The translations under genes were made by a program, and so were the position numbers. From a virus (Duplodnaviria; Caudoviricetes): a DNA stretch of 59,968 bases. Position 1 is the stretch's first letter, and each line of letters starts with the position of its first letter. Positions 1-33,418 of this stretch are shown here, in pieces. The stretch is from the IMG/VR virus record IMGVR_UViG_3300045738_001464, positions 1 through 59,968 of that record; one strand, 5' to 3'. Under the pieces are notes generated by a model. The model searched no databases. It saw nothing but the letters and a program-made list of their open reading frames with translations, and had not been told where the DNA came from.

Positions 1-3000
1 GCATATTTGTCGTTGGAAATGAGCCACTATATTTTGATTTCTTGCTTTCAATAATCATTATTGATTTAATGAGCGCATACATCTCGGCTTGGGTCATATT
101 ATAATCCTCCCAAAGATCTCCCCATTCAGTCTCGAGAGCGTCCTGCATCTTGTCTTTTGTATCTGCATTCAGATACGCCGAACTGGTCATAAACTTCCTC
201 CAGTCAGTCATAAATTCTTTTCTAGGGTCCCAATCAGTCATAAGGCCGGGACGCTCCTTGCTAAGCTTCTCTGGCATTGCCCCAAGAGACTCCCCACCGG
301 GGTAACGAGTGCTTGGTTCAGTCCGGGCGGCGTCCCATGCCGCTTGGAATTTATCTGAAGGGCCATAGAGCATCGGGGCGCTTGCACCGATGTATGCGTC
401 CCTTCCGGGGGTATGGCCTGAGTCAGTGAGTTGGAACCCGTATCCTTCTTCCCTCAGGGAATGCCCTCTCATCACTCCCGTATTCTCCCACAAGCTCTTG
501 AAACTCGGCTTGTTCTGGATACTTGAACTTCTGGAAAGAGGATTTATCGCTGCCTGAAATGGAGTTCTCGTAACTGAAGCGGGAATAGTGCCAGATTGGT
601 TCCTGAAAGCATTTACAGTTCTTGCTGAAGCCGCCTGTTGCTGATTGTACATCATATTCGCCCATGCACTAGCGAAGGATTCGGGCATCGTCTTGAGGGC
701 CACTTCAAGGTCACCATTTGATTTTATTAAGTCTGCTTGAGAAGTGATAAGGTTGGACATTTGTTGGACATTGCCACCAAGAATTTCAACAAGATTTCTT
801 CTCAGTTGTCCTTGTTCTTTTTCTATTTCTCCTGTTATATCTTTTCTCTGTTTGTCTATCTCTCCGCTTTTCAATGTGCGAAGCATCTGAAAGATAAGAT
901 CTCCGTGCTTTGTTCTTGCTCCTCCGTATACGGCGGGTGTTCCGGGTATTCCGGGTCTTCCGGGAAAATCCTCCCTTGGGTCGGCGGGTACTGGAGGTAC
1001 TGGAGGCGTTATTACACCTCCTCTTAACCAGTCTGCTGCATCGTCTAGGGACTTACCTTTTAGCATTTCCGCTTTATCTTTACCGACAAGGTAATCAAGG
1101 TTCATACTAGAAGCTTCACGAAATCTATCTGCTTGTAATTTCTTTTTAAACCCTTGAAGATCGCCTCTTGAGAAATCGAATCCCATGCTTTCAAGAGTCT
1201 TCATGGATTGTGCCCTCTCGGTAAAGGCTCCTTCTCTTCCGGGCGCACCTGCACCCAAGGGGCTAAATAAGCCCTGTATAGCACTGAACATATCCTTTGA
1301 GGGAGATAGCGCCATCGTTTCCAGTTTTCTTCTGTGTTGAAAATCCAAATTGCTTTTTTGTACTACTGTTTGTGTTTTGACTAGCTCATTTGATATGTGT
1401 TGTTTGACTGTGTTTTTGGCCAGTTCGAGACTTAGAGTAGCCATTCTGGCTTGAAGCGAAATTTGAGTATTTTTGTCGAGCTTAGATCCCGGCCCCAAAA
1501 GATCTTCATACATTTTTGTATCAATATTACCCTTCATCATTTGTAAGCCTAATGTTTGTAATTGTTGCTCCGTTTCGGTTCCAAGTCCCATTGTTACTCC
1601 CTTGGCTCCCATTCCATAAATATCCATTCCACCTTTTGAATAGGCTTGAAAATTTTCATTGAATAAGGAGGCATTCCCGAGTTTTATCTTTCTTTGAAGA
1701 TTCTTGTCCAGTTCTTCATAGGAACTTATATTTTGTTCCATTTTACCAACGATTTCCTCCATTGTAACGGTTGCCTTATAAAACAAATCAGCCAATTGAA
1801 GTTCAGCTTGTCGGGCAGCTATAAGTTGTACGGTTTTCTCTTTTAAATTTACGAGCGCAGTAGCGGCACTGTTTGCGCTTTTGGTTTCGGCATCCGCTGC
1901 ATCTTTTAATTTTCTTGCTTTTTCTACAAATCTGATTAGAGTGTCAAATGCTGCACCGTCCATAAGGTCCACGAAACTTTCTAAATCATCATCTTTTGAA
2001 TCTATTCCCATTTCCCTGAGGCTTGCCTTAGTCGCTGGTCCCTTTAGTTTGCCAGACAGTACTATGTCTGCGGCCATTTTTCTAAATACTTCTTCTGATG
2101 GCGTTTGCTCCAATTCCCCGGCCTCATGCATCCTTTCTATAACACCGCCTTTGCCAGTGATCATAACTTGATTAGCAGCTTCTTGAGAAAGATCGGCCTG
2201 AATTTCTGCCAACTTCTTTGGATCACCCTTGGCATCAATTAATCTTTGCATTAATTTTGGATCTCCCAACCTTACAAGTTGGTCAACCATTGCTCTTCTC
2301 AGGGCTTCGAGTGCCTTTGGTCCCGCTCCGGCAGCAAGTGCCTGATTATATGAGTTTTGCGCCTTGGTATATTTGCTTGTCGCAGCAGCAGCTTCTTGTT
2401 TGATTTTAATTTCTGCTTCGTATTTTCTTCTTACGTCATCCAATATGGATTTACCCGCTTCCATCGTGCTGAACAGTGCCATAATTGATCCAATAGCAAG
2501 ACCAATACCCGCGCCAATCGCAGCACCGGGGATAGCACCAGCACCTCCGGCAGGAGCCCCTATCATGCTCCCGATCCATGCTCCAGTACCCGCCATTCCC
2601 AACGCAGTACCACCGCCTTGTAACATGGCTCGCTTTCTTCTTGAGTCCTTACCAACACCCCTTCCGCCGAAAGCCTCGGCTGCTGCGCCACCAACCATTG
2701 GAGCCACAAAACTCATGGCCATTCCTATACTACCTAGTGCCTGATTGTTTCTTGACGCCCAGCTTTGTTTCTTTAATTCGTTTCGTTTCTCTTTTGCGTT
2801 TTTTTCATTTTGTCGTGATACCGCTTCTCTCTCCTTCGCAGTTTCTTTAGCTGCTGCTGCTTCCTGTTTTTTCGCTTCCACGGTTCCAAGATTCACTCGG
2901 GCCTGTTTATTTACGACTTCTACCTGTGATGCCGCTGCCCTAGCTCTTGATTTTACGCTTTCTCTGTCTCCCTTTTTGAGATCTTCGATTCGCTTCGTTT

Positions 3001-6000
3001 CCGCTTCTCTAGATGCTCTTAGCTCTTCTGTGGTTTGTCCTGCTCCTGCCCCCTTTTTGTACTCCCCTGCGGCTCGACGCCGCTCTCGGTCCCTTGCGTT
3101 CCTTAACTTCAACTCCGCTGCCTCTTTTTTCTGAAGTGCAAGAGCCGCTTTCGCGGTAGGAGTCGTCCTTTTTAGGCGCTCGTCGTTCTTTGCGATTTTA
3201 TTCTCCGCCTTCCTTTGCTTTTCCGCCGTCTTCTCGACGTTTGCTTTGGCTTGCTGTGTCTCGCGATCCAATTTCGCTTTGTGCTCGCCAAGAGTCACGG
3301 GTCTAAATCTTTTCCCAGCCTTTTCGGCTTCTTTTGCTCCAGCTTGATTTATTGCTACTATTGTTAACCGTCGCTGAGCTACTGATCGATCCCTGAACTT
3401 TTTTTCTTCCTTTGTTGCCTTTTTTACTTCGCTTACTGCTTTTTCTTTTTCGCGAATCGTGTCTTTATGTACTTTTCTTAATTTTCTGTCAGTTTCTCTT
3501 TCACGATCCAAGACTTTTTGGGTAAGCTCTACTCTTTTTATTGATGTATCATGTTCATTTTTAGCTTGAGTAACTTGATCTATTGCGGCTTGTCTACCTC
3601 CAAGTTCCGTCGTTCTTGCCACGTTTGCTGCCTCCTTTTTACGAACATCCTCTTGAGTAGTTTCGATATTCTTCAATATTTGCTGCAACTGCTGTGCCTG
3701 TTGGTTTTGCTTTTGGTCACCCTTACCTTCAAAAACACCTAGGTCTCCAAGTTGTTTTCTAAGGGATTCAATTGTCGCTGGGCTCGGACTACCCTCAGCG
3801 ATATTCAAAAGCTTTTGTTTAATAGCAGGTAGTTTCTTTTCCTGCTTAATGTCTTTTTGTTCTTGTTCGAAAACTTTCGCTTCTGCTTGAGTAGCTTTTT
3901 CTGTCGCTATGACTGCCTTGGCTGTCGCCTTTTGGTCTTTTTCAAACGTAGCCTGAAGCTCCTTTAATTGTGAATCCATCATGCCATAAATTTTATATCC
4001 TGCGGCCCCTGCAGCCCCAGCCACAGCACCACCCATGAGTATATCTCCAATAAAGTTAGGAACGTGACCCGCTGCGGCTCCAGCCATTGCCGGATTGGGA
4101 TGATTCATAACAGCAGACCTTAAAGCCATCTTGGTTGGCTCATCACGCCTATTGCCAACCACTGGCCCTGAGTAATTTGGAGTATGTACGCTGGTGGCAT
4201 AAATTTGACTAGGGGGTAATCCACTGGCTTTCTTTTCTCTGGCGAAAGCGGCAGCCATTGGATCTGCGAAGTTTGGAACGTGACCACCAGCCATATTTAG
4301 CATACCTTTGGTTCCAGCTTGAAATTCCTTTATACTGTCCGGATGAAAAGCCTTACCCCAACTACTGCCGGGCATTTTGAACATAGTTGAATATGATCTA
4401 GCATCAGCATAAAGTTCTTGCACCTGTTGGCCCGAAAAAGGATGTTTGAAGCTGCTTAACACGCTTTCTCCCTGTGCACCACCACGGTATGAAGAACTCT
4501 TTGCACTCCTCCTTACTATATGTTTTGCAATAGGATTGTTTGATTGAAAGAATGTTAAAAATTCTCGCATTTCCTTGGGGATATTTGTGGCTCCAGAAAG
4601 ATAACTGGAAATATCACCAGTGGCCATCCCGCTGTTGCTCATTTTATCTCCCATGATTGTAGTTAGCCCTTTTTTGCTGCCACCTTGCCAACCAAATTTG
4701 GAAGGACCAAACCCCCGACGAAGCATGTACTTCAAGGCTGCTTCCGCATGTCCCGCTTCATGCAACACCACCCGTTCAAGCTCATCGCGTAGATTAAACA
4801 TAACTCCGGGCTTCTTGTTCTTTCCTTTAAGGGCATCCCATTGAGCTTGATCAGGGAATTTCCGCTTCAAGCCCTTGCTTGGATCAGTGCCGAAACGAAT
4901 TTGGGGTAAACCACCCTTTTGGCCTTTTATTGGAAATTCTTTATCGCCTTTGCCGCGAAAAATATCATTGTGTGGATGCCGCCGGATATCCATAGTACCT
5001 CTAGTAGGACTAAATGCCCCCATGAGCCCGGCTGCATCTCCAAACTTTCTGGGTGATGACTCGCGGTAATTAAAAGTAATTTTATCCCTAAGACCGCCAA
5101 TTAAGTGTGCGTATTTTGGGTCTAAGATTTGCTCAGATGCCGCTTTCATCGCAGGACCATCAACCATTCGACTGAGAGCTTTAAACTCTTCCTTGTTGAG
5201 GCCCTTAACACCCCCTATCTCTTTATCAATTCTAAATCTCCCATATTTTCCTGTTATGAAGTTCTGGGAGAATCGAGAAAAATTCGGAATATGACCTCCG
5301 CTTCTTACCCTATATCGCTGCTGGGTCCATTTTTGTCCGGGTGCGCCTCCTACTCCGGCTGCGGGTGGCATAGTAAAACCACCGGGTAATACTTTTCCGG
5401 GTCCCATTGGTTTTCTATTAGATATTATTTGTTGTATTTTTTCCCATAGGCTTAGACTTACGTTTTTGGCCCCTTTTACTAAGGGAGATTCACCCCATTG
5501 TCCTTTGAGCCAATCTCCTCCAGCTTTCCTAGCCCTCAGCCTTGAAGATTCGAGGTCCTTGATGCGCTGAGGTTCTTGATATCCAAAACTCGGAATGTGA
5601 CCTCCAGACCGTCTTTTTCTTCCAAATGCAGGACCCTGCATTTGCGGTTTTAGCCCAAGCGTTTCTTTGAGTAAATAAAGGGAAGACTCACCCTGCGGCA
5701 CTCCCCCGGCTTTCCACGGAGCCGCCTTGTCTATCCCAAGACCTTGCATCATTTGAAGTCTTTCCATCTCTTGACGAGTAAGCCATTTTTGTCCGGATGC
5801 GCCCCCTACTCCCGCTTTGGGCGGCATCATTTGATTACCGGGTTGTAACATTTTTCCGGGTCCCCATTTCATGAGATTCGGAATATGGCCACCAGCATAA
5901 GAAGGACCCAAATGCTTCATCATTTTCATTTCTGAAAGCATGTCTTTGTAGATATATTCTAGACCTTTTCCCTCGCCCAAGTATACCCGCCTTGCGTCTA

Positions 6001-9000
6001 AAGATTTCTCAAGGCCGCTCAATCCGATCTTATCAGCAAATTTACGATGCCTACGCATATCCGTAGCATGTTTCATCGCGTATTCTATTCCGGGTTGTAC
6101 GTGTCCAGACGGAGAGGTTTCATGGCCTCTGGGTCCAATTGTATAGCTCGTTCCGGGAGTTGTTACGACACCCGGAGGGAGTACTCGCGTTGCAACGCTC
6201 TCCGATTGTCCTGTTATCATACGTCCATAACTTGCAGTATCTTTGGCCGCAAGCCGTTGGTACATTTTGTCTTGCTGATCAGGTGATAACCTATTAAATG
6301 AGTTAGTAGCTCTTTCAGCTAACCTGTGATGACGAAAGAGTTCCTGTGGGGTTACTGACGTTAATCTGCGATCACCTATCATCTCCTGAGCGAAACCTTT
6401 ATCTTTCCCCCGAATACCTCCAACTGCGTTTATTGCTGCAATATTGTGATAATCTTTAATTCCTCGTTTACTATTAGTAATTTGTTCCAGAAGCCATTTG
6501 GGGGCTGTTTTCCAAAATGGGTCTGCAAGTTCACTTTGTGCCCTTAAGTCGGACCCTATGGCTTTCATCCCTGATGGTTTTGCTACATAGTTCCCCCACT
6601 CTTGTCTATCGACGTTCCATATTTCCTTTTTCTTTGGTTGGTAGACCTCCCCCTCTCCAACACTCCATTGTTTTCCCTGCTGGATATTCACGCCGGTATC
6701 AAACTTAAATGTCTCGTAAACCTCTTTGTTTGCGGGTTTCCACATCCTTCCACCCATCGCCATAGCTTGAGGAGTACCACCAATATTGAGTTGCATGTCT
6801 CTTGGGATATTAAACATTCCGTGATGTTCGCCTTTAGAAATCTTTTTCCACATCGCTTTTTTAGACTTTTGCATCATGAAGTCTATAAATTCCTTACCAG
6901 ACCCGAATTGGTTCATAAGCCATTTGGGGGCTGTTGGATCTTTACCCTTTATTGGAAAATACCCCGGAGCATGACCATCCACGCTATACATTTTCTTCAT
7001 CAGTTCTTGCTTAAATCCAGAATATTGGAAATCTCCCGCTCCTTTGTAATATGGAGTCTTTGGGCCAAATCCCCCGCGCCCAGCGAAGTTTGGAATATGG
7101 CCTCCAGCCATAAATGGTTGGTTCTCTATAAAACTTCTTCCTGTTTTATACGCACTCTGCCAACCGGGGGTAGTGTCTGCTGCGTATTTTTCCATAGCTG
7201 GTAGATGTTTTTTTCTCAAGAAGTTGGTTGCAACGGCGACATCTGGATGGCTTCCCCCTATTGTTTCAAGCATTTTTATATAGTAGTCAGGATACAGTTG
7301 CATCGATTTCCCTACCAAGTTGGCCTTAGTAAATCTGTCCGAGGTAGCTTTGATATCACCAAGTTGAGTAGCCCCGCTCCGAAGGGGGATGCCTACGTCT
7401 GCTGGACCCCCTCCTCCTGCGCTCCTATAATTTACTGCACCAAAATTATGAATACCCGGTGCTTTCTCGAAAACTATATCCTCAAAAAATTTGGCATAAG
7501 ATGGATCTTTGGTCAGGCCAAACGATTTGGCGGCACGACCTATATGCGAAAATACCTGTCGAGGAGATTCATAATTACTCAACATACTTGTGTCCATTCC
7601 TTGACTTCTTATTTTTTGGAGCATCCCTTTATCAAGCCCTTGGAAAGCTTTTGATTCCAAAATATGTGCCACGGTTGTTCCCACTGGAAGTATGTCTGCA
7701 ATTTCGTTTAGGGACGAAAAACTGACCCCCTGTACTTTATTACTGGTTAAAATTCTACCAATCGCATCATATCCTTCTTTGCTGGCTCTGGTATTTGTAT
7801 GTGTTTTAAACGCCTTAGTTAAGGGGGGTTTGTAATGTGCCTTGCTACTAGTGCGCCCAAACAGACCACCGACAGGAGATGGAACCAATCCCCTACCACT
7901 ACGAGGGTCTCCACTCCATCTTTGTTGCATTCCAAAATTAGGGACATGACCTCCAGCATATAACATTTCCATCAAGCCGTCAGAATGTTTTCTAAATTTG
8001 TGACCCCCCACACTGAATCCCATAATTCTATCAACTGCGGCTTCACGAAAATCTTGCGCGGGACCAGTGTCCCAAAAACGAAGATATCCCGGTCTCTCCT
8101 TATGGGAAGCCTTTCCTCCCTTGAGGCTTTTTGCCGCCCACCTCTTGCCTTGTCTTTCTTGAAATTGACCTCGTGCATCTTTAAATTGTATATTAAAGAA
8201 GTGTCCTGTTCTGGCAGAATATTCCCTTACTACCGCAGCCAACGTATCAGGATTCATTTTATCTCCCGCACCCCAAGGTTTTGGTTCTAGAGGGGCTATG
8301 AGTCCTCGCGCCGGAGCGTATCGGCTTTTCGGTTGCCGAGCGCGACTTACACCCGCAAAATTCGGAATATGACCACCAGCTAATGAATCGGGGCTATAGC
8401 CAATTTGTTGTTTAAATTCCCTTCTGTAAATTTTACCCGCCGAGCTTCCCTTCGGGGGTATAATGGCGGGTTGGGCAAAACCCGGAACACGTTTGACTTG
8501 TTCTGCTGTATTGTATGTAACTCTTCCCATCCCCGGCATTTGTCCCGTCTTGATTTTTCCGGGCATGTAACCACCAGCAATTGCTCCCATTATTTCAGCA
8601 GATTGATTTTGTTTGTTGAGATTAGGAATATGGCCTCTAGCCAGTTTTTTGACAGGCCCTCCTATCTTTGTCTCGCCTTTTAGATTGGTTCCACCGCCAC
8701 CCGCTACTATAGTTCTTGCCATCCCCCCCGCCTGTGCATCTATTACCTTCATTTTAATGCTTTGGTCAGTAATTAATTTTAGTATTTGTCTTTCAGCATC
8801 CCTCCTAGTTATGGTTCCCGCGATCAATTTACCAAGAATTACCTCCTGACCACCCAAAACTTCTGCAACTACTTGTTGCGTAGCCGCTATTTTCATAGAC
8901 TGAGACTGAATTTCCATAAATTCTAATGCAGCTTGGCCCATATATTTCGAAAACGTTACAACTATTTTCATTCCGAGTATCGCAATAGCAGCCAATCCCG

Positions 9001-10333
9001 GCCCACTTAAAAATTCTCCGAATCCCTTTATAAATCCTACTGCTATATCTTGCCCCAGACTCCTTCCCTTGGCGTCGCCCTTTTCAAAATATCCAAACAC
9101 CTTATCAAAAACTTTGATTATGTTTTCTATCGATGGGCCAAGAACAGCTTCACCAATGCCCTTACCTGCCATTGTCAACCTAGCCTTCATTTGGTTAATT
9201 TGGGCGTCAAGGGTCTTATTGAGTTCCTTATTCCTTAGTATAGCTTGGTTTGTGGCTTTATTTGATACATCTAGAGCAGAAGCATAAATCGAATAATCCT
9301 TTCCAAGATCACCCAATAAGGCTCTTAAAGTATTCATTTGAAATACTCCAGCAACTATTTCTGATGTATGCGCTTGCTGAGCCTTTGTTAGTTGTGGAAA
9401 TTTCTTTGCCAGATTTTCAAGGACAGTCATAGCTGGAAGCATAGACCCCTGTAGACCCCTTACTGCAACGCCAAGGGCTTCTAATTGGTCCAGAGTGTCT
9501 GTTCTTTGAATCCTTGTGAAAATACTCTTTAACCCGTTACCAATTACAGGTCCACCACGAGCGGTTGTTTGTTGCAATGAAGAAACAGCCGCGAGTAATT
9601 GATTGAAGTCAACCGAAACGTCTTGAGCGGTACTACCAACTCGCTTCATGGCTTCCGCAAGGTCTTGAGTACTGACAGCAAATGCGGCATCAACATTTGC
9701 CATTTTGTTAATGATTTGAGTTGAAGTAAGGGCAGATCTATTAAAAGTATTTATTGCGGCGGTTAATGCATTAACAGAAGCCTCCGCATCCATTCCAGAA
9801 AGCCTTGTCAATATAAGAGCATCGCTAGTTCTTCGTAGGGTTTCTTCTAGTGTGAGACCCTGACGAGCTAATTCTTTTGCTGCTATAGCTACCGTTTGGA
9901 ATGATTGTCCGGTTTTTCCAGCAATGTTAAATAACTCTCTAGAAAAACTTTGAAGTTGAGAGGAATTTGCGTTTAAAATAACATTGATATCTTGCAATTC
10001 CCTTTCTACATCTATCATTGTTTCGACAAGGAATCTAAATGCTCTCTGAAGTGCAAAAATAGCTCCGGCAGAAGCCCCGAATGCTAAAACACGGGCATTA
10101 GAAGCTTCAAGGGACTTTTGGAATTCGCCCAACGAACCCTTAATTTGTCCAAGGGGCCTTGTGAATTGTTTGGCATCGATACCCTTAACGCCCTTGTTAG
10201 CGGCTCTAGAATGCTCCCTACCATAGGCTTGGCCACTCTTTCGTCCAGCAGTAGCAGACTCTCGTAAGAGTCTTTTTTCGTCGAGGTCAAATCTAACCTC
10301 TGCCTCGATAACTCCAAATTTGTCTTTCGCCAT
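1..10333 (-). CDS. Giant tail tape measure protein (TP901/PhageMin_Tail-type N-terminal core) with internal multi-domain insert; 3' end runs off the window
   Basis: ATG at 10333 gives MAKDKFGVIEAEVRF...LEASNARVLAFGASAG...ELQDINVIL...LFNIAGKTGQSFQTVAIAAKELARQGL...ALILTRLSGMDAEASVNALTAAIN, typical of tape measure cores. The frame was open in every stretch translated by hand, including bases 2-210, and its absence from the ORF track implies no in-window stop. Gly/Ala-rich TM-like stretch at ~2480-2730. Lies directly downstream of tail tube and chaperone genes. Confidence 0.93.
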   Translation of the reverse strand, partial: MAKDKFGVIEAEVRFDLDEKRLLRESATAGRKSGQAYGREHSRAANKGVKGIDAKQFTRPLGQIKGSLGEFQKSLEASNARVLAFGASAGAIFALQRAFRFLVETMIDVERELQDINVILNANSSQLQSFSRELFNIAGKTGQSFQTVAIAAKELARQGLTLEETLRRTSDALILTRLSGMDAEASVNALTAAINTFNRSALTSTQIINKMANVDAAFAVSTQDLAEAMKRVGSTAQDVSVDFNQLLAAVSSLQQTTARGGPVIGNGLKSIFTRIQRTDTLDQLEALGVAVRGLQGSMLPAMTVLENLAKKFPQLTKAQQAHTSEIVAGVFQMNTLRALLGDLGKDYSIYASALDVSNKATNQAILRNKELNKTLDAQINQMKARLTMAGKGIGEAVLGPSIENIIKVFDKVFGYFEKGDAKGRSLGQDIAVGFIKGFGEFLSGPGLAAIAILGMKIVVTFSKYMGQAALEFMEIQSQSMKIAATQQVVAEVLGGQEVILGKLIAGTITRRDAERQILKLITDQSIKMKVIDAQAGGMARTIVAGGGGTNLKGETKIGGPVKKLARGHIPNLNKQNQSAEIMGAIAGGYMPGKIKTGQMPGMGRVTYNTAEQVKRVPGFAQPAIIPPKGSSAGKIYRREFKQQIGYSPDSLAGGHIPNFAGVSRARQPKSRYAPARGLIAPLEPKPWGAGDKMNPDTLAAVVREYSARTGHFFNIQFKDARGQFQERQGKRWAAKSLKGGKASHKERPGYLRFWDTGPAQDFREAAVDRIMGFSVGGHKFRKHSDGLMEMLYAGGHVPNFGMQQRWSGDPRSGRGLVPSPVGGLFGRTSSKAHYKPPLTKAFKTHTNTRASKEGYDAIGRILTSNKVQGVSFSSLNEIADILPVGTTVAHILESKAFQGLDKGMLQKIRSQGMDTSMLSNYESPRQVFSHIGRAAKSFGLTKDPSYAKFFEDIVFEKAPGIHNFGAVNYRSAGGGGPADVGIPLRSGATQLGDIKATSDRFTKANLVGKSMQLYPDYYIKMLETIGGSHPDVAVATNFLRKKHLPAMEKYAADTTPGWQSAYKTGRSFIENQPFMAGGHIPNFAGRGGFGPKTPYYKGAGDFQYSGFKQELMKKMYSVDGHAPGYFPIKGKDPTAPKWLMNQFGSGKEFIDFMMQKSKKAMWKKISKGEHHGMFNIPRDMQLNIGGTPQAMAMGGRMWKPANKEVYETFKFDTGVNIQQGKQWSVGEGEVYQPKKKEIWNVDRQEWGNYVAKPSGMKAIGSDLRAQSELADPFWKTAPKWLLEQITNSKRGIKDYHNIAAINAVGGIRGKDKGFAQEMIGDRRLTSVTPQELFRHHRLAERATNSFNRLSPDQQDKMYQRLAAKDTASYGRMITGQSESVATRVLPPGVVTTPGTSYTIGPRGHETSPSGHVQPGIEYAMKHATDMRRHRKFADKIGLSGLEKSLDARRVYLGEGKGLEYIYKDMLSEMKMMKHLGPSYAGGHIPNLMKWGPGKMLQPGNQMMPPKAGVGGASGQKWLTRQEMERLQMMQGLGIDKAAPWKAGGVPQGESSLYLLKETLGLKPQMQGPAFGRKRRSGGHIPSFGYQEPQRIKDLESSRLRARKAGGDWLKGQWGESPLVKGAKNVSLSLWEKIQQIISNRKPMGPGKVLPGGFTMPPAAGVGGAPGQKWTQQRYRVRSGGHIPNFSRFSQNFITGKYGRFRIDKEIGGVKGLNKEEFKALSRMVDGPAMKAASEQILDPKYAHLIGGLRDKITFNYRESSPRKFGDAAGLMGAFSPTRGTMDIRRHPHNDIFRGKGDKEFPIKGQKGGLPQIRFGTDPSKGLKRKFPDQAQWDALKGKNKKPGVMFNLRDELERVVLHEAGHAEAALKYMLRRGFGPSKFGWQGGSKKGLTTIMGDKMSNSGMATGDISSYLSGATNIPKEMREFLTFFQSNNPIAKHIVRRSAKSSSYRGGAQGESVLSSFKHPFSGQQVQELYADARSYSTMFKMPGSSWGKAFHPDSIKEFQAGTKGMLNMAGGHVPNFADPMAAAFAREKKASGLPPSQIYATSVHTPNYSGPVVGNRRDEPTKMALRSAVMNHPNPAMAGAAAGHVPNFIGDILMGGAVAGAAGAAGYKIYGMMDSQLKELQATFEKDQKATAKAVIATEKATQAEAKVFEQEQKDIKQEKKLPAIKQKLLNIAEGSPSPATIESLRKQLGDLGVFEGKGDQKQNQQAQQLQQILKNIETTQEDVRKKEAANVARTTELGGRQAAIDQVTQAKNEHDTSIKRVELTQKVLDRERETDRKLRKVHKDTIREKEKAVSEVKKATKEEKKFRDRSVAQRRLTIVAINQAGAKEAEKAGKRFRPVTLGEHKAKLDRETQQAKANVEKTAEKQRKAENKIAKNDERLKRTTPTAKAALALQKKEAAELKLRNARDRERRRAAGEYKKGAGAGQTTEELRASREAETKRIEDLKKGDRESVKSRARAAASQVEVVNKQARVNLGTVEAKKQEAAAAKETAKEREAVSRQNEKNAKEKRNELKKQSWASRNNQALGSIGMAMSFVAPMVGGAAAEAFGGRGVGKDSRRKRAMLQGGGTALGMAGTGAWIGSMIGAPAGGAGAIPGAAIGAGIGLAIGSIMALFSTMEAGKSILDDVRRKYEAEIKIKQEAAAATSKYTKAQNSYNQALAAGAGPKALEALRRAMVDQLVRLGDPKLMQRLIDAKGDPKKLAEIQADLSQEAANQVMITGKGGVIERMHEAGELEQTPSEEVFRKMAADIVLSGKLKGPATKASLREMGIDSKDDDLESFVDLMDGAAFDTLIRFVEKARKLKDAADAETKSANSAATALVNLKEKTVQLIAARQAELQLADLFYKATVTMEEIVGKMEQNISSYEELDKNLQRKIKLGNASLFNENFQAYSKGGMDIYGMGAKGVTMGLGTETEQQLQTLGLQMMKGNIDTKMYEDLLGPGSKLDKNTQISLQARMATLSLELAKNTVKQHISNELVKTQTVVQKSNLDFQHRRKLETMALSPSKDMFSAIQGLFSPLGAGAPGREGAFTERAQSMKTLESMGFDFSRGDLQGFKKKLQADRFREASSMNLDYLVGKDKAEMLKGKSLDDAADWLRGGVITPPVPPVPADPREDFPGRPGIPGTPAVYGGARTKHGDLIFQMLRTLKSGEIDKQRKDITGEIEKEQGQLRRNLVEILGGNVQQMSNLITSQADLIKSNGDLEVALKTMPESFASAWANMMYNQQQAASARTVNAFRNQSGTIPASVTRTPFQAAINPLSRSSSIQNKPSFKSLWENTGVMRGHSLREEGYGFQLTDSGHTPGRDAYIGASAPMLYGPSDKFQAAWDAARTEPSTRYPGGESLGAMPEKLSKERPGLMTDWDPRKEFMTDWRKFMTSSAYLNADTKDKMQDALETEWGDLWEDYNMTQAEMYALIKSIMIIESKKSKYSGSFPTTNM
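4052..8641 (-). repeat. Dispersed protein-level repeat (A/S)GGH(I/V)PNF within the tape measure gene (9 clear copies + 1 degenerate)
   Basis: In-frame copies: 8618-8641 ARGHIPNL, 8555-8578 AGGYMPGK (degenerate), 8357-8380 AGGHIPNF, 7934-7957 AGGHVPNF, 7085-7108 AGGHIPNF, 5873-5896 AGGHIPNL, 5585-5608 SGGHIPSF, 5279-5302 SGGHIPNF, 4268-4291 AGGHVPNF, 4052-4075 AAGHVPNF. Synonymous codons differ between copies. Confidence 0.93.
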
Positions 10334-11432: not shown

Positions 11433-12470
11433 TTATTTAGATTCTTGTTTGGGCTCGCCCTCAGCCTCTGGTTCTGGCTCCGGCTCTGGCTCTGGCTCTG
11501 GTTCCGCCTCTGGTTCCGGCTCTGGCTCCGGCTCTGGCTCTGGTTCCGCCTCTGGTTCCGGCTCTGGCTCCGGCTCTGGCTCTGGTTCCGCCTCTGGTTC
11601 CGATTCTGGCTCTGGTTCCGGCTCAGTTTCTGGCTCTGACTCTGGCTTAGTTTCTGGCTCTTTTTTGGATTCAGGTTCTTCCTTATCTTTATCCTCAGGC
11701 TCCGATTCTGATAAATTATTTAGATCTTCTACAATATTTTGTTCCGCTAGAGCTTCTTCGAGTTCTTTTTCGGTATTCGCCTTTGACACAAACCAAAAAC
11801 TAATAATATAGGTAAGCTTTTTAATTACGTTTTCTATAAATTCGTTTTCCTCTTCAATAAAAGCGTCATAAGTATCTAATTGCTCTTCGAAAGAACCACC
11901 CCCAAAATAAGCTATTTCTTTGCCATCGTTATCGACAGCATAAGACAAGAATAATATCCACCACAAAATAGTTTTGTTTCTTGCTCTTACTTCAGCGGTC
12001 TGTTCGTATAAACTTTGTTGACCCATTTCGAAATCAGTAAGAGCACTTCTTGTAGTAAGAAGAAAGGCTTCGAGTTCTTTGAATTTATTTGATTCTTCTT
12101 CTGTTCTATTTTTTTCTGTTTTTTCTGCGATTTCAACATAGTCTTTTTGATTTTCGTAAAAATCTAAATATAAGGAACCAAATCTTTCAATATCGGGTTT
12201 ACTTAATGTACCGCCGTCATTGTCATACCTTTTCGCGAGCAATGCCCTTGTTAGCAATCCAGCTTTTATTCCTTCCGATAATTTTACAGCATAATAAAGC
12301 TCTGCTTCGTCATATAATGATCGGGTGGGTTTACGTATAAAAAACTCATAGGGAACTTTTTTTTCCTCTTCTTTTTCGACAGTAATCTTTTCACCCTTTT
12401 CATTTTCGGTGGTTTCTCTTGTGATTACCGTTTCTTTCTTGTTTTCTTTGAAGGTGTACAATCTTTTCAT
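11433..12470 (-). CDS. Probable tail assembly chaperone-like protein with C-terminal Pro-Glu repeat tail
   Basis: Located between tail tube and tape measure genes; acidic helical body; about 60 aa of (EP)n at the C-terminus. Confidence 0.6.
11464..11640 (-). repeat. Coding tandem repeat (Pro-Glu; 42-bp higher-order unit)
   Basis: gcctctggttccggctctggctccggctctggctctggttcc is exact at 11506 and 11548, with a near copy at 11464. Confidence 0.9.
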
Positions 12471-23290: not shown

Positions 23291-24214
23291 TTATGAAATT
23301 TTATAGCCGCTTCCCGGCGTATAATAATATTGGTTTGTTGCTAAATAATTTTGTCTAACTTTAGAATGCTCCAAAGCTCTATTATAAAAATGAAAATGTC
23401 CGAATTTGTGGCCTTCCGTTGAAATATTAATGGTGGAGGTAGAGGCGATAAAAGCACCAATGGCAACTTTTTGAAGTCCAATTCCAGAGAAGTTATCTGG
23501 CCCTGCGCGAAATGGATTAGGTGGATATACTCTTTCCCTTACTCCGTTAATATAAAATCGATAAGCTTCATCATTGGTATTTGATGAATCATACACAAAC
23601 GTGAAATTATACCAACGACTGTCTTCTAGAGCACCTAATCCGTGCTTTTCTCCAGTATTCGCTTCTCCGGGGCCTTCGCCAATTATAAAGCGCTTGGAAC
23701 TTGATTGGCTCCCAATGTCTAATTCTAATCCATTACCTTTTACAATTAGTGCTATTCCGGGATTTGTTCCCTCGAAATAACCAAAGGGACTGCCCAAAGA
23801 CCAAACATAACTATTATTGGTTATTTCCATTGCGTTCCATATGGAAATTGTAAAATCATTACCCAAGTCAGCACGAAAATCAGAAGCATAACCGCCGCCA
23901 GCAAAACTACATGAACCTATAAAATCGTCAGAGCCATCCGATTCAAAAAAAGCAGGATGACCAAGATGGTCTCCACTTCCGGAGATAAATGACATTCCAT
24001 TTAAAACACATAAATCATCATCACCCTTTAAATTGTTATAATCTGTTGGGCTAACATTATAATCGAAACTTTCAGTATTGTTTGGGTCAAAATTTCCACT
24101 AAGATAACCTGAGATAAATTGATCAGGCTGCCAATAGAAATCATCAACTATACCGCTTGATTTGTGTCCTAAGACACTATTCCAAGTAGTGCTGAACCAA
24201 TCCGTAATATGCAT
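23291..24214 (-). CDS. LamG/concanavalin A-like domain protein (putative receptor-binding)
   Basis: DFTISIW, RWYNFTFVYD, FYING, FYNRAL...VRQNY jelly-roll motifs. Confidence 0.75.
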   Translation of the reverse strand: MHITDWFSTTWNSVLGHKSSGIVDDFYWQPDQFISGYLSGNFDPNNTESFDYNVSPTDYNNLKGDDDLCVLNGMSFISGSGDHLGHPAFFESDGSDDFIGSCSFAGGGYASDFRADLGNDFTISIWNAMEITNNSYVWSLGSPFGYFEGTNPGIALIVKGNGLELDIGSQSSSKRFIIGEGPGEANTGEKHGLGALEDSRWYNFTFVYDSSNTNDEAYRFYINGVRERVYPPNPFRAGPDNFSGIGLQKVAIGAFIASTSTINISTEGHKFGHFHFYNRALEHSKVRQNYLATNQYYYTPGSGYKIS

Positions 24215-24216
24215 GA

Positions 24217-24669
24217 TTAATCCTGCTCCGCATATCCAGCTATTGTTCCACTAATTTGAGAATTGAAACATGTAACAACTAGCATTCCTGTTTTTCCAGA
24301 AGGGAATACATCTGGCTTTTCCCCTATAAAACCCATATCAGAATGAAACGTAACACGATTACCTGTTGGGCATGTTATCCTAAGGAGTAAAGAGCTTCCT
24401 ATTTCGATGCCAGTTAAACCGAATGAACCAATGTCTCCTGTAACGTTTGCTGAAGAAAAGCTATTGTCAAAATTGCCAGTAAAATTAGTAATAATTGGAA
24501 TATTACCATAATCATGGAAACCAGTATAGCCACCACCGCCGCCTCCGGCGCTGGATACAGTACCAAACTCACACTCTGTTCCGGCGTCATTTATAACCAC
24601 ACCTTCCCCAGCGGAGCCGCCCGAAGGGCTTATCCTAGATACATTAAGTCGTTTTAGCTTACTGTCCAT
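24217..24669 (-). CDS. Short fibre/adaptor protein sharing its C-terminal domain with the collagen-like fibre
   Basis: LLLRIT...FIGEKPDVFPSGKTGML...CF...AEQD aligns with the fibre C-terminus VLLRVS...FVGESPTSLPSGKIGLL...SF...AVED. Confidence 0.65.
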   Translation of the reverse strand: MDSKLKRLNVSRISPSGGSAGEGVVINDAGTECEFGTVSSAGGGGGGYTGFHDYGNIPIITNFTGNFDNSFSSANVTGDIGSFGLTGIEIGSSLLLRITCPTGNRVTFHSDMGFIGEKPDVFPSGKTGMLVVTCFNSQISGTIAGYAEQD

Positions 24670-24677
24670 TTTATCCT

Positions 24678-25628
24678 TTAATAACTATAGAGGTTCCAAT
24701 GGCCTACGTCTACTACTTTTTTGGTGGCGAAATAATTTTGTCTAATTTGTGAATTTTTAAGCGGTTTATTGTATATCAATGTTCTTCCCACTCTATATCC
24801 AGCATTAGCGTATTGAGTGGGAGTAATATCAGAGGCTAATATTCTACCTATAGTTAGTGGAGCTCCGGTGTTGTGGATAGGATGGCGAAGGATGTGGCCA
24901 CCAAATTCAGCCGCATAAGGACTATCTGGAATGGAAATGTCACCAAATGTCATTATCGGTTCAAAAGAAGGTCCATAAAATAAATCAAAATAACTAATAT
25001 CTTTTTTCTTTGTTATCGAAATCATATACCATCGATCCGGTTCGAAAGTTGGGCGAGGCACGTATTGATCCTTCATAGGGTATCTTTCCATCATCGAACA
25101 CGCTGCGGATTCCATAGTTCCTCCGCCATCAATATTCCAAATTTTGAGACTTCCCACAAGCGGAGCAGTACCGTGGTCGCCGCCACCCCCTTCCCCACTG
25201 TGAGTTGATAGGGCAAATCCTGCCGCACCTTCTCCGGGGCCTTCGTGGTCCGATTGGACAGGGTCAGATCCTATAAGACAACCATTTACCGTTGGACTGC
25301 CCTCATCAAATTTCCACCAAGAACATATGGTAAAACCTTCAGTTATATTAAACTGAAATTTGCTCTCGTATGCTCCATCGAATGGGCCGATATAGTCATC
25401 TGTTCCATCAAATAAAAAATGTCTTGAAGTATCTCCAGTAACAAAAGTGATACCATTTTTGAGTTCTAAGTTTGGCTCTGAAGAAACTAAATTGGTAAAT
25501 TTAGTACCTACCTCATTATAGCTGCCAGTATGGTTTGGATCAAAGTCTCCTATTAAATCATCTGGGTATATACCAGATGGACTCAATGCACCTAATGTGA
25601 CTACTTGCTGTATTCCTGCAACAAACAT
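24678..25628 (-). CDS. LamG/concanavalin A-like domain protein (paralog of 23291-24214)
   Basis: GDFDPN, FDGTDDYIG, FTICSW, RWYMISIT, IYNKPL...IRQNY. Confidence 0.75.
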   Translation of the reverse strand: MFVAGIQQVVTLGALSPSGIYPDDLIGDFDPNHTGSYNEVGTKFTNLVSSEPNLELKNGITFVTGDTSRHFLFDGTDDYIGPFDGAYESKFQFNITEGFTICSWWKFDEGSPTVNGCLIGSDPVQSDHEGPGEGAAGFALSTHSGEGGGGDHGTAPLVGSLKIWNIDGGGTMESAACSMMERYPMKDQYVPRPTFEPDRWYMISITKKKDISYFDLFYGPSFEPIMTFGDISIPDSPYAAEFGGHILRHPIHNTGAPLTIGRILASDITPTQYANAGYRVGRTLIYNKPLKNSQIRQNYFATKKVVDVGHWNLYSY

Positions 25629-25648
25629 ACCTTAATCCTATACCTCAC

Positions 25649-28600
25649 TTAGTCCTCTACCGCAAACGCAGCGACACAATCTCCTGATTCGCTTCCAAAA
25701 CTTTTAATTGCCAACAGCCCTATTTTTCCAGAGGGTAATGAAGTTGGCGATTCCCCTACAAAATGAATTCCAGCATTTCCACTACAGAAAGTAAAATCTC
25801 TATATACTTGCGCTCCAGAAACCCTAAGTAAAACTTCGGCTCCTTCTGATATATTTTGAACTAAAAGTCCCGTGGCATCACCAGACAAAATCAACTTTTG
25901 AGAAGATAATCCTGCCATATCCACCACTAAAAACCCGGTAGTTGCAAAAACTCCGCTATCGTAAATCTCATCTCTGAAGTTGCCGCTTAAATAAAGAGTT
26001 CCCTCGCCTGTCGTCGAGGCAGCGCTAAATGTTAATCCGGTTTCTGCATTTACTTCCCCAGTATTAGCAGCAATTGTAACTAGTCGATTTTCTGCTGGAT
26101 TATGTACGACTAATGCACCATCATTACCTGCCCTTATAAAATTTAAAACTACATCCTCACCATCATTAAATGGTGGATCTGCTGATCCATTAATGGGCGT
26201 TACATCTATCTCAAAATAATCTGTTTGATCCGTAAGACCGTCAACTTGAAAAACGGCAAAAGATGGATCTACAGAATCTTTAGACTGCATGACTAAATGC
26301 CCCTTAACAATTGCATCAGCATCGTCCCACGCAGATAAATAATCTGCTTGAGGTTCGCTATTGGCATCTACGTCATCTATAGAGATTGTAGTTACTAGTG
26401 AGAATACAACATCATCGAAAGCTAAGACTCCGTTACCCGGATCTCCAATAACTACAGTATCATCAAATTTATATTGTAATCCGCCTCTTGGACCGAGCGT
26501 TCCCGAAAGCCCACTAACCCCACTTGGACCTTGTATATTTATAGGGCCAAATGATGCAGGTTCATTCGTTAAAAAGTAAATTCCTGTACCCTCACCAGTA
26601 GCTCCTGTAATGCTTGCGCCAGTAGCGCCAGTAGCCCCCGAAGGTCCGGTTACTCCGATCTCCCCTTTGTTTCCTGTAGGTCCGATAGGGGAGAACGAAG
26701 CGATAACCTCACTACCAAAATCCCATATACTATAAGTCTCATCGCCAGCTTCGCTGAGGACAATCCCCCCCCCATAATAAAAATCTCCTCCAGAAATACC
26801 GCTTGGCTTAAGTCCTATTTCGGTATATCCCACATCTGTACTATTCTCAAATTCGGTAGCGTCACCAGTAACAACAAATGATGCATACTTTAAATTCGCA
26901 GACGTTTTGTCATACACCTTTAGAATGCCTCGGGCATTTTCATTTCCGAAAGCCATAAAAGAGGATGCAAAAGCTTTTACATTCTCACTAGTATCTTCAG
27001 CGCCGAAACTATCCCAAGACAGTGCCACTCCTGTCGCATATTGAAGTTGGGCTCCATCACCAGTACTTGCGTCTGTAAAAAACTTTATTTGGGTTCGTTT
27101 AAAGCCTTCATACCCAAAATAACTTTCAACCATATCCGATGGATCGGTTCCAGTTTGTAACTCGTAACTATGAGCATAGCCTCCAAATTGACCTATCATG
27201 CCACTACCAACAGGGGAGTGCACCAAGGCAACCATAATATTACCCCAACCATCATTTTCAGGTGAGTCTCCACCTTCAGAGACAAAACCCACATCCAATG
27301 TAATATAGCCCCTGTCTGCTCCTGCGTCATATCCCTCCCCGTGAACACCGTTGATCTTAAATTGACCGAAATTGTCTGGTTTTCTTGGATCATACATTTT
27401 GATCCGTGCATTAACGTAATCCGACAAACTGGTAGTCCAACCAGAAACTGGTGCTCCATCATAATCGTAAAAATCAAGATATATTTCTGTCACTATAGAA
27501 AGTGGTCCAGTATCATTATATGATAAACCTCCAGCCGATGGGGGCGTACCTTGAGCACCATCGTGAACGAAGTATCTGTAGTCACCGCCAGCAGTACCTA
27601 TTCTTCCCGCTTGGGAATAGGAAATTCCCATTGTGTCACCACTTATAAAATCTGCAAGAGGGAATCCAAGATTATCATCTACATATCCCACCGGAATAAC
27701 TCTATAATCGGGACTTGAAGAATCGTCGTTGTATATGTCTCCTGTTATGTCCCATGTTGAATATATTTTTGAATTTCCTAGGTTAAATATTCTAAGTCTT
27801 CCACGAGACTCTTCGGAACGAAAGCCATAAGTTCCACCCAGAGAATCTAGCCATCCTGTTGAAACGTCGTATTTTTCTGCTCCGCTATTACTAATACATA
27901 ATCCAGTAACATATCCCAGATTGACATCTCCCGGATTTATGCCGTCTTTGTGATGATAACTAAAGCGTCCTGTTCCCGGATCTAATTGTTGGTTTGCTTT
28001 AATCCCCATAGGGTCATCTGGATCAACACCAGTACCGTGATAAATCCAAGAATGAGTATCACCACCGAATATTCCAGTAGGCCCAACTAGTCCCTTATCT
28101 CCCGTGTTCCCCTTGTTTCCCATAGGAGTAAATGAAGCAATTACCTCATCGCCATGAGTCCATATATTATAGGTTTCGCCATAATTATCATTTGGATAAT
28201 GCTTACCTTCCGTGAAGTTGCCACTTACCCCAACGATAGTATATACTCCCTCTCCACCTTTCACTGAATAATCTGGCACTAAACCAGTAATGAGAAATGG
28301 CGCGAATATCAAATTCGTATTATTTATATCATATATTTTTAAAATGCCTCGACCAGTTTCGGTTCCGAAAGTCATGAAAGTTTCTGCAAAGCCCCTAGTA
28401 TTGTCTAATGTCAAACCAGCATTATAACTTTGCCAAGCGATAGCTATACCTGTGGCATTTTGAACTTGAGCTCCGTCGCCAGTACTTGTGTCGGTAAGGA
28501 TTTTTATATCTCCCATACTAAACCCATACAGGTCTAGATTAGTTGGATCGGTTCCAGTGTTTATTGAGAAGGTGAAAGAATACCCACCGGGTTCACCATC

Positions 28601-30670: not shown

Positions 30671-31056
30671 TATGACATTGAAGTTGTAACTTCGGGAATA
30701 ACATTAATGTAACCCCTAGCTACTTTCTGAACGTTCCAATCTCCGGAAGAGGCAGGAACAGTTTCATACTTTTCAATATCGTATACGCCTTGGACGATGG
30801 GAAGGCCAGAGGTTACGTCAGGTCTGAGGTAAATATCAATAAAACCACTGGCTCCGAGAGTAAGGTCTGAACCATAGCCAGAAATTACCTTTGGATTAAG
30901 ATCTAGAAGAACGCTTCCTGTTCCATATCTAAATTTAGCTACTCCACGAGCAGAATAGCCGCTTAAATTAATTGGAATATCACTGTCGTCTTTTACCTTA
31001 AACCTTATATCCAGAGTAGACCCTTGATTTATGTCGATGTTGTAAGTGGTTGCCAT
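30670..31056 (-). CDS. BppU-like/Ig-fold fibre attachment protein
   Basis: YNIDINQGST...PINLSGYSARG...GVYDIE...RGYINVIPEVT, a common phage fibre-adjacent pattern. Confidence 0.65.
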   Translation of the reverse strand: MATTYNIDINQGSTLDIRFKVKDDSDIPINLSGYSARGVAKFRYGTGSVLLDLNPKVISGYGSDLTLGASGFIDIYLRPDVTSGLPIVQGVYDIEKYETVPASSGDWNVQKVARGYINVIPEVTTSMS

Positions 31057-31068
31057 ACCGTTTATTCA

Positions 31069-31082
31069 TTACACGATTACAC
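31069..31082 (-). promoter_or_regulatory. Tandem GTGTAA motifs
   Basis: CGTGTAATCGTGTAAT ending about 12 nt before ATG 31056. Confidence 0.65.
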
Positions 31083-31107
31083 GACGAGAAACCCAACCTT
31101 GTATTAT

Positions 31108-31521
31108 TTAACGCCCCTCTTCTAAAATTCTTCTAATATGGGAAGGCAAATTTTCAATGTTGTTATTTGGATTTCTCTGCATCTTGGGAACTTGATAACC
31201 GTAGACATGACGCCTAAACTCATCGAGCAACCGTACTTCTAGCCGTTCTCTATCCCCAGTAGGGACAATGCCCAATGTACTTGCATGGGTTTCCAAATCG
31301 GTTCTTCCCATTTCGTCTAATTGTTTTAAATATACCTTTTCATCCATAGTGTCGTATTTAGACATGCCGTCATCACCCCAAATTTGGTCAAGAGTACTTG
31401 GCTCAAAGTTTTCCTCTTTGCCGTGAGTTTGCTCCATGTCGCTAATTTTTGGCTTCTTGGAAGCTTTCACAGATTTTTTAGGGGTCTTTTTCACAGTTTT
31501 TTTCTTTGTTTTTTTATTCAT
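31108..31521 (-). CDS. Hypothetical protein with Lys-rich N-terminus
   Basis: Probable start MNKKTKKK (31521) or MDIV (31533); downstream of the capsid gene. Confidence 0.65.
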   Translation of the reverse strand: MNKKTKKKTVKKTPKKSVKASKKPKISDMEQTHGKEENFEPSTLDQIWGDDGMSKYDTMDEKVYLKQLDEMGRTDLETHASTLGIVPTGDRERLEVRLLDEFRRHVYGYQVPKMQRNPNNNIENLPSHIRRILEEGR

Positions 31522-31557
31522 AACTATATCCATTTTAATTATTATAACCCATAAAAC

Positions 31558-31590
31558 CAAAAAACCCAAGGGGAAAGTCCCCTTGGGCTT
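31558..31590 (-). terminator. Rho-independent terminator after major capsid gene
   Basis: CCCAAGGGGA-CTT-TCCCCTTGGG followed by a T-tract on the minus strand. Confidence 0.85.
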
Positions 31591-31608
31591 AGGTTAATCA
31601 TTTAATGA

Positions 31609-32784: not shown

Positions 32785-32811
32785 TATAATCCTTTTTAGT
32801 AAAGTGTTAAT

Positions 32812-33375: not shown

Positions 33376-33418
33376 AATTTTTTCCTATTGTTTATTATTA
33401 AATCTTTCTTTGTTGTCG

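Follow-up and report, generated by a model that had tools for sequence, protein, structure and literature searches.

A short repeated peptide as the junction between exchangeable cassettes in the giant tape measure proteins of an uncultured tailed-phage clade

Identification of the motif array

The minus-strand open reading frame (ORF) at positions 2–10333 of viral contig IMGVR_UViG_3300045738_001464 encodes a giant tape measure protein (TMP) in which a run of mostly unrelated segments is divided by nine copies of a short peptide, GH[IV]P[NS][FL]. Comparison with relatives supports a modular array in which this peptide marks the junctions where cassettes are gained and lost. The stretch analyzed, referred to here as the window, is the entire contig of 59,968 bp and has no terminal repeat; the ORF runs off its first end, and the C-terminus of the TMP, of which 3444 amino acids (aa) are encoded, is lost at the contig end together with the downstream genes. 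The ORF belongs to the TP901-type TMP of an uncultured aquatic tailed-phage clade. The TP901-type tape measure core occupies residues 94–423 (9065–10054, minus strand) and is matched by TIGR01760 with an E-value of 3.6e-37 and a score of 128 bits (cut-off 28.8), by PF10145 at residues 140–322 with an E-value of 1.3e-27, and by 11 TMP families of PHROGs, and the first 544 residues match 350 TMP records of cultured phages at ∼27% identity.

Matches to GH[IV]P[NS][FL] begin at TMP residues 567, 654, 795, 1078, 1482, 1578, 1680, 2017, and 2089, corresponding to window positions from 8618–8635 down to 4052–4069 on the minus strand. The nine copies compare with 0.0003 expected per shuffle in 20,000 shuffles and with an analytic expectation of 0.00024, and a six-frame scan of the window finds all nine inside the TMP ORF and no match outside it. 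Nucleotide identity among the copies over 18 nt averages 77% with a range of 61–100%, and some copies are identical over 11–18 nt. The difference in codons between copies indicates that selection acts on the peptide, in agreement with the initial annotation, which had described one peptide encoded with different codons. Position 2 is His in all nine copies despite differing His codons, whereas the closest relatives are mixed at this position. The motif coordinates and spacings of that annotation are also reproduced: 87 (given as 21 plus 66), 141, 283, 404, 96, 102, 337, and 72 residues. Nine of its ten copies stand; the tenth, a "degenerate copy" at residue 588 (AGGYMPG), was rejected as a motif and belongs instead to a conserved GGYxPGxIK element of the first segment, module A, in which the columns of Y589 and G592 are invariant and that of G588 is nearly so. 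The sequence APGIHNFG at residue 962 is a loose look-alike of the motif. The array is composed as follows.

8618–8635, minus strand: motif copy 1, GHIPNL, residue 567, which opens the array
8375–8617, minus strand: module A, residues 573–653, a conserved small alpha/beta unit predicted by AF2, with homologues in the same place in relatives
8357–8374, minus strand: motif copy 2, GHIPNF, residue 654
7952–8356, minus strand: cassette 2, residues 660–794, a candidate WYL_2-like Sm/SH3 barrel (Pfam; alignment to relative P0006)
7934–7951, minus strand: motif copy 3, GHVPNF, residue 795
7103–7933, minus strand: cassette 3, residues 801–1077, common only to the closest relatives
7085–7102, minus strand: motif copy 4, GHIPNF, residue 1078, the left edge of a lineage-specific insert
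5891–7084, minus strand: cassette 4, residues 1084–1481, a near-orphan
5873–5890, minus strand: motif copy 5, GHIPNL, residue 1482
5603–5872, minus strand: cassette 5, residues 1488–1577, rich in Gly, Pro, Lys, and Gln, sharing a 35-aa repeat with cassette 6
5585–5602, minus strand: motif copy 6, GHIPSF, residue 1578
5297–5584, minus strand: cassette 6, residues 1584–1679, rich in Gly, Pro, Lys, and Gln, sharing the 35-aa repeat with cassette 5
5279–5296, minus strand: motif copy 7, GHIPNF, residue 1680
4286–5278, minus strand: cassette 7, residues 1686–2016, with HEAGH at residue 1858 (window 4748–4762)
4268–4285, minus strand: motif copy 8, GHVPNF, residue 2017, the right edge of the insert, which opens module B
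4070–4267, minus strand: module B, residues 2023–2088, the conserved last module, a distant relative of module A
4052–4069, minus strand: motif copy 9, GHVPNF, residue 2089, which closes the array

The array as a whole (residues 567–2094) is placed between the N-terminal core and a putatively helical and hydrophobic C-terminal part. It is strongly basic, with a net charge of +101 and segment isoelectric points of 9.8–10.8, and is Gly-rich with no hydrophobic segment. The segments between motifs are mostly unrelated and not ruler-like, as had been proposed: the units are non-homologous, their spacings are irregular (72–404 residues), and only one pair among the eight segments is similar, which does not correspond to ruler-type tandem repeats. 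That pair is cassettes 5 and 6, which share 60% identity over a 35-aa repeat. The repeat, MPPxAGVGGAxGQKW..., is duplicated locally across a motif (5297–5872).

Conservation of the motif among relatives

A search with TMP residues 545–2110 returned 86 giant TMPs of 2063–5319 aa, nearly all from metagenomes, giving a set of 87 proteins with that of the window. PF10145 is present in all 86. A loose motif expression has 438 matches distributed over all 87 proteins, compared with 0.93 expected, and the unbiased core [IV]PN[FY] has 479 matches compared with 3.4 expected, 436 of which have Gly two residues upstream. The family consensus is [AS]-x-G-[F/H/L/Y]-[IV]-P-N-[FY]-A. The logo of 133 distinct instances, which was seeded from the all-His copies of the window, reads [A51/S36]-x-G100-[H46/F31/Y13/L7]-[I59/V40]-P100-N97-[F84/Y11]-A73 (percentages), whereas in the unbiased core search the order of frequency at position 2 is F > H > L > Y, with M occurring as well. 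The initial annotation had included His as a motif residue; with F, H, L, and Y all found at position 2, it is not conserved across the family and, as judged from these alignments, is not essential to the motif. As many as 14 motifs occur in a TMP of this family.

Module A is present in 297 of 323 pattern-matched IMG/VR stretches; the clade, with its motif, extends over no fewer than 297 contigs from viral metagenomes. In the 80 independent IMG/VR loci that were kept, 343 motifs were counted compared with 0.62 expected, and outside TMPs only three chance matches occur. Four further matches belong to the TMP of locus L087, which is split into two ORFs by a frameshift at an A11 homopolymer (L087:7360–7420) ∼37 residues past the last motif; the split is either a sequencing error or slippage. 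Relatives are also found in 27 contigs of metagenome-assembled genomes labelled with many phyla, labels that probably reflect the binning of phage contigs. In the TMP of one relative, L020, residues ∼480–760 retain a module-A-like stretch in degenerate form, with look-alikes of the motif that have decayed. The cultured giant TP901-core TMPs YomI of SPbeta and that of Lactococcus phage AM4 have no copies of the motif, and distant blastn and tblastn searches with the array found nothing like it among GenBank phages. Single-sequence locus searches of genome and viral contigs yielded no confirmed relative; alignment-based repeats of these searches found them.

Cutting the 87 proteins at their motifs gives 343 segments of at least 30 aa. 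The module A core is found in 70 of these segments, 66 of which are the first of their protein, and the module B core in 56; of 54 proteins with module B, 51 have it as their last segment. The other 217 segments are variable, and 60 of them are singletons. The general layout is thus module A first and module B last, enclosing 0–8 variable cassettes; the commonest form has a single cassette between the two modules and four motifs (59 of the 80 IMG/VR loci), and the window has six cassettes. Modules A and B are distantly related to one another (hhalign probability 97.8%, with the motifs included in both profiles). Among the 86 relatives, homologues of module A number 64, of cassette 2 one, of cassette 3 two, and of cassettes 4–7 none, and residues 1084–2016 scored against 1.84 billion representatives returned four short fragments only. 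By these sequence comparisons cassettes 4–7 (∼930 aa) are near-orphans.

Turnover of cassettes at the motif

Among 13,805 ends of high-scoring segment pairs between relatives, which are not independent of one another, 44% fall within five residues of a motif, compared with 7% at random. The TMPs of the window (P0001) and of relative P0002 are collinear to residue 1099 and then unrelated over 913 and 353 residues, respectively, with homology resuming at residues 2012 and 1454; the breaks coincide with the motifs at 1078 and 1079 and with those at 2017 and 1459. In P0003 module B directly follows the motif at residue 1064, indicating that the window carries a four-cassette insert of ∼930 aa between its motifs at 1078 and 2017. 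Cassettes occur in inverted order in P0017 relative to P0035, and a swap of cassettes distinguishes P0013 from P0025. At the DNA level, locus L029 corresponds to L033 plus one cassette of 161 aa, with flanks 81–89% identical: L029 reads GFIPNFA-[154 aa]-GFIPNFA where L033 has a single GFIPNFA, and the cassette is flanked by 21-nt motif-coding repeats that differ at two synonymous sites.

These comparisons bear out several expectations of the initial annotation. The flanks, comprising the TMP core, module A, and module B, are conserved, and the segments between motifs vary in number and identity among relatives; the array is neither collinear nor invariant, as the permuted orders and the one-cassette difference between L029 and L033 indicate. 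Domain boundaries fall at motifs, as judged from the homology breaks, the predicted fold of module A, and the presence of SNase and WYL_2 domains between adjacent motifs. The suggestion that the motif is a junction for the gain and loss of cassettes is likewise supported by the breakpoints, by the shuffling, and by an indel bounded by motif-coding repeats. Because the motif is encoded by repeats of ∼21 bp, it also acts as the recombination joint for this turnover.

That the repeat matters only as DNA, with a functionless peptide, is highly improbable. An indel lying between 21-nt repeats with two synonymous differences, as in L029 and L033, would agree with such a joint, as would the 11–18 nt shared exactly by some copies in the window, but the peptide is conserved through synonymous differences that lower mean nucleotide identity to 77%, it is kept across relatives whose cores are only 24–32% identical, and three amino acids kept invariant in a single frame would not be expected of a DNA site.

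Folds and contents of the segments

In the AF2 model of module A, computed from a 34-row alignment, the core has the secondary structure order H-E-E-E-E-H-H at pLDDT 73–82, and both flanking motifs are below 50, suggesting that the motifs lie in linkers outside the folded core. The predicted fold appears to match nothing solved: Foldseek gave no match at E ≤ 0.001, the best Z score in a wide VIA search was 2.8, and in searches of the PDB by sequence the array had no matches and the module A profile only E 0.13 and E 0.42. A prediction of the complex of three module A copies with flanking motifs scored 0.00, which is uninformative either way.

The placement of the motifs in this model bears on the unlikely case that the motif is an intrinsic structural element with no outside partner, a strand or turn that clasps the ends of a cassette or brings the three TMP chains back into register. 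Gly and Pro suit a fixed turn, modules A and B, which are distantly homologous (the 97.8% hhalign relationship), both begin and end with the motif, and cassettes carried within a rope-like trimer would presumably need their ends close together. However, AF2 packs neither motif against module A, the motif bounds unrelated folds, and in eight proteins tandem copies occur 8–19 residues apart with no domain between them.

Most cassettes have no recognizable function, and Pfam assigned none of five common cassettes from relatives to a family. Two relatives have recognized domains: an SNase domain (E 1e-6) at residues 962–1058 of P0031 between its motifs at 926 and 1114, and a WYL_2 domain (E 3e-8, above the Pfam cut-off) in P0006 between its motifs at 700 and 813. 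One relative has a muralytic glucosaminidase domain at residues 2414–2545, far outside its array. For the window, three segments had been suggested to carry enzyme or binding-domain motifs, which is confirmed in part. Cassette 2 matches WYL_2 in Pfam with E 0.038 and aligns at E 1e-8 to the bona fide WYL_2 cassette of P0006, which supports the suggestion for this segment. The HExxH sequence of cassette 7 (HEAGH) is kept in a 31%-identical homologue, P0091, which ends in the motif and the start of module B, but the AF2 model of the cassette, built on four rows, has a pLDDT of 32 and is unusable; cassette 7 has no match in Pfam or the PDB, and its best score in the ESM Atlas is 0.78. The suggestion of a nuclease in cassette 3 derives from a Pfam hint at E 0.1 and from an E...(D/E)xK pattern conserved in five sequences, which lies elsewhere in the segment than the Pfam hint and is a lead only; the ESM Atlas gave no usable match for this cassette. 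Kinship of cassette 3 with the common cassette of the family was considered and rejected (hhalign probability <1%).

Interpretation of the motif

The interpretation toward which we lean, tentatively, is that the motif is an assembly or docking handle read by a conserved phage component. The motif would be a short linear signal recognized by one phage-encoded factor, and each cassette boundary would dock through it either to the chaperone for tail assembly or to the inside wall of the tube. Cargo that is not part of the ruler could in this way travel inside the tube and leave it before the DNA does, and a cassette would be tolerated whenever it brought its own motif. Here we infer recognition by a separate phage component, the identity of that partner, transport within the tube, and delivery. 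Copies of one protein are more alike at position 2 than are copies from different proteins (uniformity 0.524 compared with 0.370 ± 0.013), which points to one phage reader for all copies of a protein. The preference for docking also derives from the contact that any chaperone or tube partner necessarily makes with the TMP, and from two conserved ORFs upstream of the TMP in the position of tail assembly chaperones, one of them with an acidic tail that would face the strongly basic array:

11433–12470, minus strand: the first of the two ORFs, with an acidic (EP)n tail of ∼96 aa
10372–11418, minus strand: the ORF directly preceding the TMP, syntenic in relatives and with no family match

Synteny of these two ORFs is kept in 21 and 18 of 27 related loci. 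The (EP)n repeat occupies the C-terminal part of the first (∼11433–11720), where 45 of the last 100 residues are Asp or Glu; its homologues in phages with small arrays are ∼250 aa long and have short tails. Across 75 non-independent loci the acidity of this tail correlates with array length (Spearman 0.30, p 0.009).

Several observations weigh against docking. The correlation just given is weak and phylogenetically confounded, and it bears on the basic cassettes and not on the motif; in locus L019 the tail of the upstream ORF is basic. Neither upstream ORF matched a chaperone or tube family, so that their role is assigned from position only. Spacing of the motif in the family is irregular, from 60 to >400 aa, with no periodicity that would match a lattice. 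Some boundaries have no motif: module A runs directly into the next stretch in P0003 and P0007, and in P0004 module B lies at the end of a 286-aa segment; two relatives, L020 and L021, have no motif at all. The invariance of G, P, and N across cores sharing 24–32% identity is stricter than in most docking motifs and would fit a cleavage site driven by chemistry as well.

Such cleavage, which we regard as possible but doubtful, would make the TMP a polyprotein cleaved at every motif, for instance at the bond between N and [FY], either after tail length has been set or during ejection, by a phage protease or by Asn chemistry triggered by assembly. Module A, the cassettes, and module B would then be separate proteins, reaching the host before the DNA. 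The array has n+1 sites for n units, with both outer edges included, its cassettes are independent of order, the motif lies in what is predicted to be an accessible linker, and G, P, and N are near-invariant, with Asn 97% conserved; the n+1 layout and the invariant residues fit cleavage at least as well as docking. Domains directed at nucleic acid, such as SNase and WYL_2, would work best once freed, and the window lineage has a candidate peptidase of its own in the cassette with the conserved HExxH, which could serve in processing. TMP processing is known in lambda and T5, and self-cleavage between Asn and Phe in tetravirus capsids. To our knowledge, cleavage of a TMP at multiple sites has no precedent. 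Processing also requires a protease that was not seen, or unproven chemistry: the 20 window ORFs scanned on this incomplete contig include no protease family, the HExxH cassette gives an unusable AF2 model and is absent from all 86 relatives, so that it is not the general enzyme, and with F, H, L, Y, and M occurring, position 2 offers no fixed catalytic residue. In 107 loci, no gene was found split at a motif by natural fission, the sole split TMP being that of L087 with its A11 frameshift. Release of domains by autoproteolysis has been proposed for polyvalent proteins (PMC5512222).

A host factor could alternatively be the reader, the motif being bound after ejection by a periplasmic chaperone, prolyl isomerase, or translocon, although this is quite unlikely. 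The invariant Pro is flanked by hydrophobic or aromatic residues, and the motif is kept across phages binned with many phyla; the TMP of HK97 depends on the periplasmic chaperone FkpA. However, the preference of each protein for its own position-2 residue points to a phage-specific reader, the host labels of the assembled genomes are probably binning artefacts, and the cultured giant TMPs YomI and AM4 manage without the motif.

Relation to known systems

TMPs with accessory domains are known, as in mycobacteriophage TM4 and T5 pb2. Like the window protein, YomI of SPbeta, which some records annotate as a transglycosylase, combines a TP901-type core with additional non-ruler domains that would be expected to be ejected ahead of the DNA. 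TMPs of the YomI type, however, contain a muralytic domain or two but lack a junction motif, whereas the family described here has up to 14 motifs, shuffled cassettes, and contents that are mostly non-muralytic or unrecognized. Viral polyproteins and phage head proteins are cut at short consensus sites, and in these also a short conserved peptide stands at each unit boundary, with n+1 sites for n units. Unlike them, the carrier in the present case is a tail ruler that must stay whole during assembly, and no protease family was found among the 20 window ORFs scanned.

Polyvalent proteins are described, in the part of that work available (Iyer et al., 2017; PMC5512222), as delivered polypeptides with many unrelated domains each, evolving rapidly as mosaics, with proteolytic release proposed. 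The window family similarly joins several unrelated domains in one polypeptide and evolves as a mosaic, but tape measure proteins have no occurrence in that part of the polyvalent-protein paper, nor does a conserved junction peptide. None of the hallmark polyvalent domains (MPTase and the LPD families) was found by Pfam in the whole window TMP or its eight segments at E-values up to 10; a match to LPD23 in the ESM Atlas, at 0.77, is below any useful threshold. Effectors of the Sle1 type from contractile injection systems of actinobacteria are likewise described, in the accessible portion of the source (PMC13277306), as a TMP-derived scaffold acting as a reconfigurable carrier of variable modules; as presented there, these proteins differ from the window TMP in having one variable functional domain each, in belonging to a contractile injection system and not to a phage, and in having no repeated junction motif. 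Literature searches, covering article main texts outside subscription journals, turned up neither the motif nor a TMP array bounded by it. The new elements are therefore the junction motif and the shuffling of cassettes, TMPs with accessory domains and polyvalent carriers being already known.

Tape measure protein outside the array and neighboring genes

Hydrophobic segments of the window TMP lie at residues 440–466, 2094–2112, 2532–2554, and 2595–2627, and by composition residues 2130–2559 form a stretch rich in Ala, Lys, and Glu. Two features follow the array:

3998–4054, minus strand: hydrophobic Gly/Ala-rich segment, residues 2094–2112, which begins inside motif 9 and shares its final Phe
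2291–2599, minus strand: DUF6861-like glycine-rich hydrophobic region, residues 2579–2681 (E 5.3e-7)

A sorting-signal-like unit composed of the last motif and the hydrophobic segment was considered and rejected, because the segment is present in only 18 of 54 relatives. Relatives P0002–P0074 have a repeated element, D-x-[VI]-P-A-M-x-x-G-E-Y-V, in their C-terminal part; the window ORF ends before that region. Apart from the L029 cassette, the insertions and deletions that separate close relatives are in the ruler part, >2 kb from the nearest motif. L031, L042, L082, L086, L091, L093, and other loci show indels of 150–770 bp within the helical region of their TMPs, well away from motifs, and differences of this kind between close relatives would alter tail length.

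All large ORFs of the window are on the minus strand. GC content is 43–47% over the TMP (1–10000), 40–45% over 24000–34000, and 34–37% over most of the remaining window, and a run of G at the contig end (59960–59968) is probably a sequencing artefact. PHROGs matched the 10 neighboring ORFs only once, weakly, to a family of unknown function. An ORF of 1673 aa at 25649–30670 (minus strand) contains collagen triple-helix repeats (PF01391, E 4.8e-15) and is perhaps a fibre. A phage cement protein (PF22758, E 3.4e-8) is encoded at 32812–33375 (minus strand) between the candidate portal and candidate capsid genes, neither of which has a match among GenBank phages.

Significance

TMPs are usually seen as rulers with an occasional wall-degrading addition. 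Here, in a clade without a cultured member, they hold a clade-wide plug-in rack in mid-ruler, in which one peptide of 7–9 residues marks each slot and is the point where cassettes are gained, lost, and reordered. With the motif as a rule at sequence level, the mostly dark-matter cargo of uncultured phages can be located, and there is a defined peptide whose reader, whether a chaperone, the tube, or a protease, can be sought. It is conceivable, if rather doubtful, that a cut at each G-x-[IV]-P-N-[FY] between N and [FY], perhaps by Asn chemistry within the tube, frees shuffled basic effectors directed at nucleic acid ahead of the genome; a TMP cleaved in this way would parallel, in the tail, the polyvalent proteins packaged into heads, and the motif would also be the joint at which new cargo is plugged in. 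The array makes the accommodation of non-ruler domains in a tail tube, and their exit from it, directly testable, and if the rack tolerates foreign inserts, the loading of phage tails with proteins could follow this natural template.

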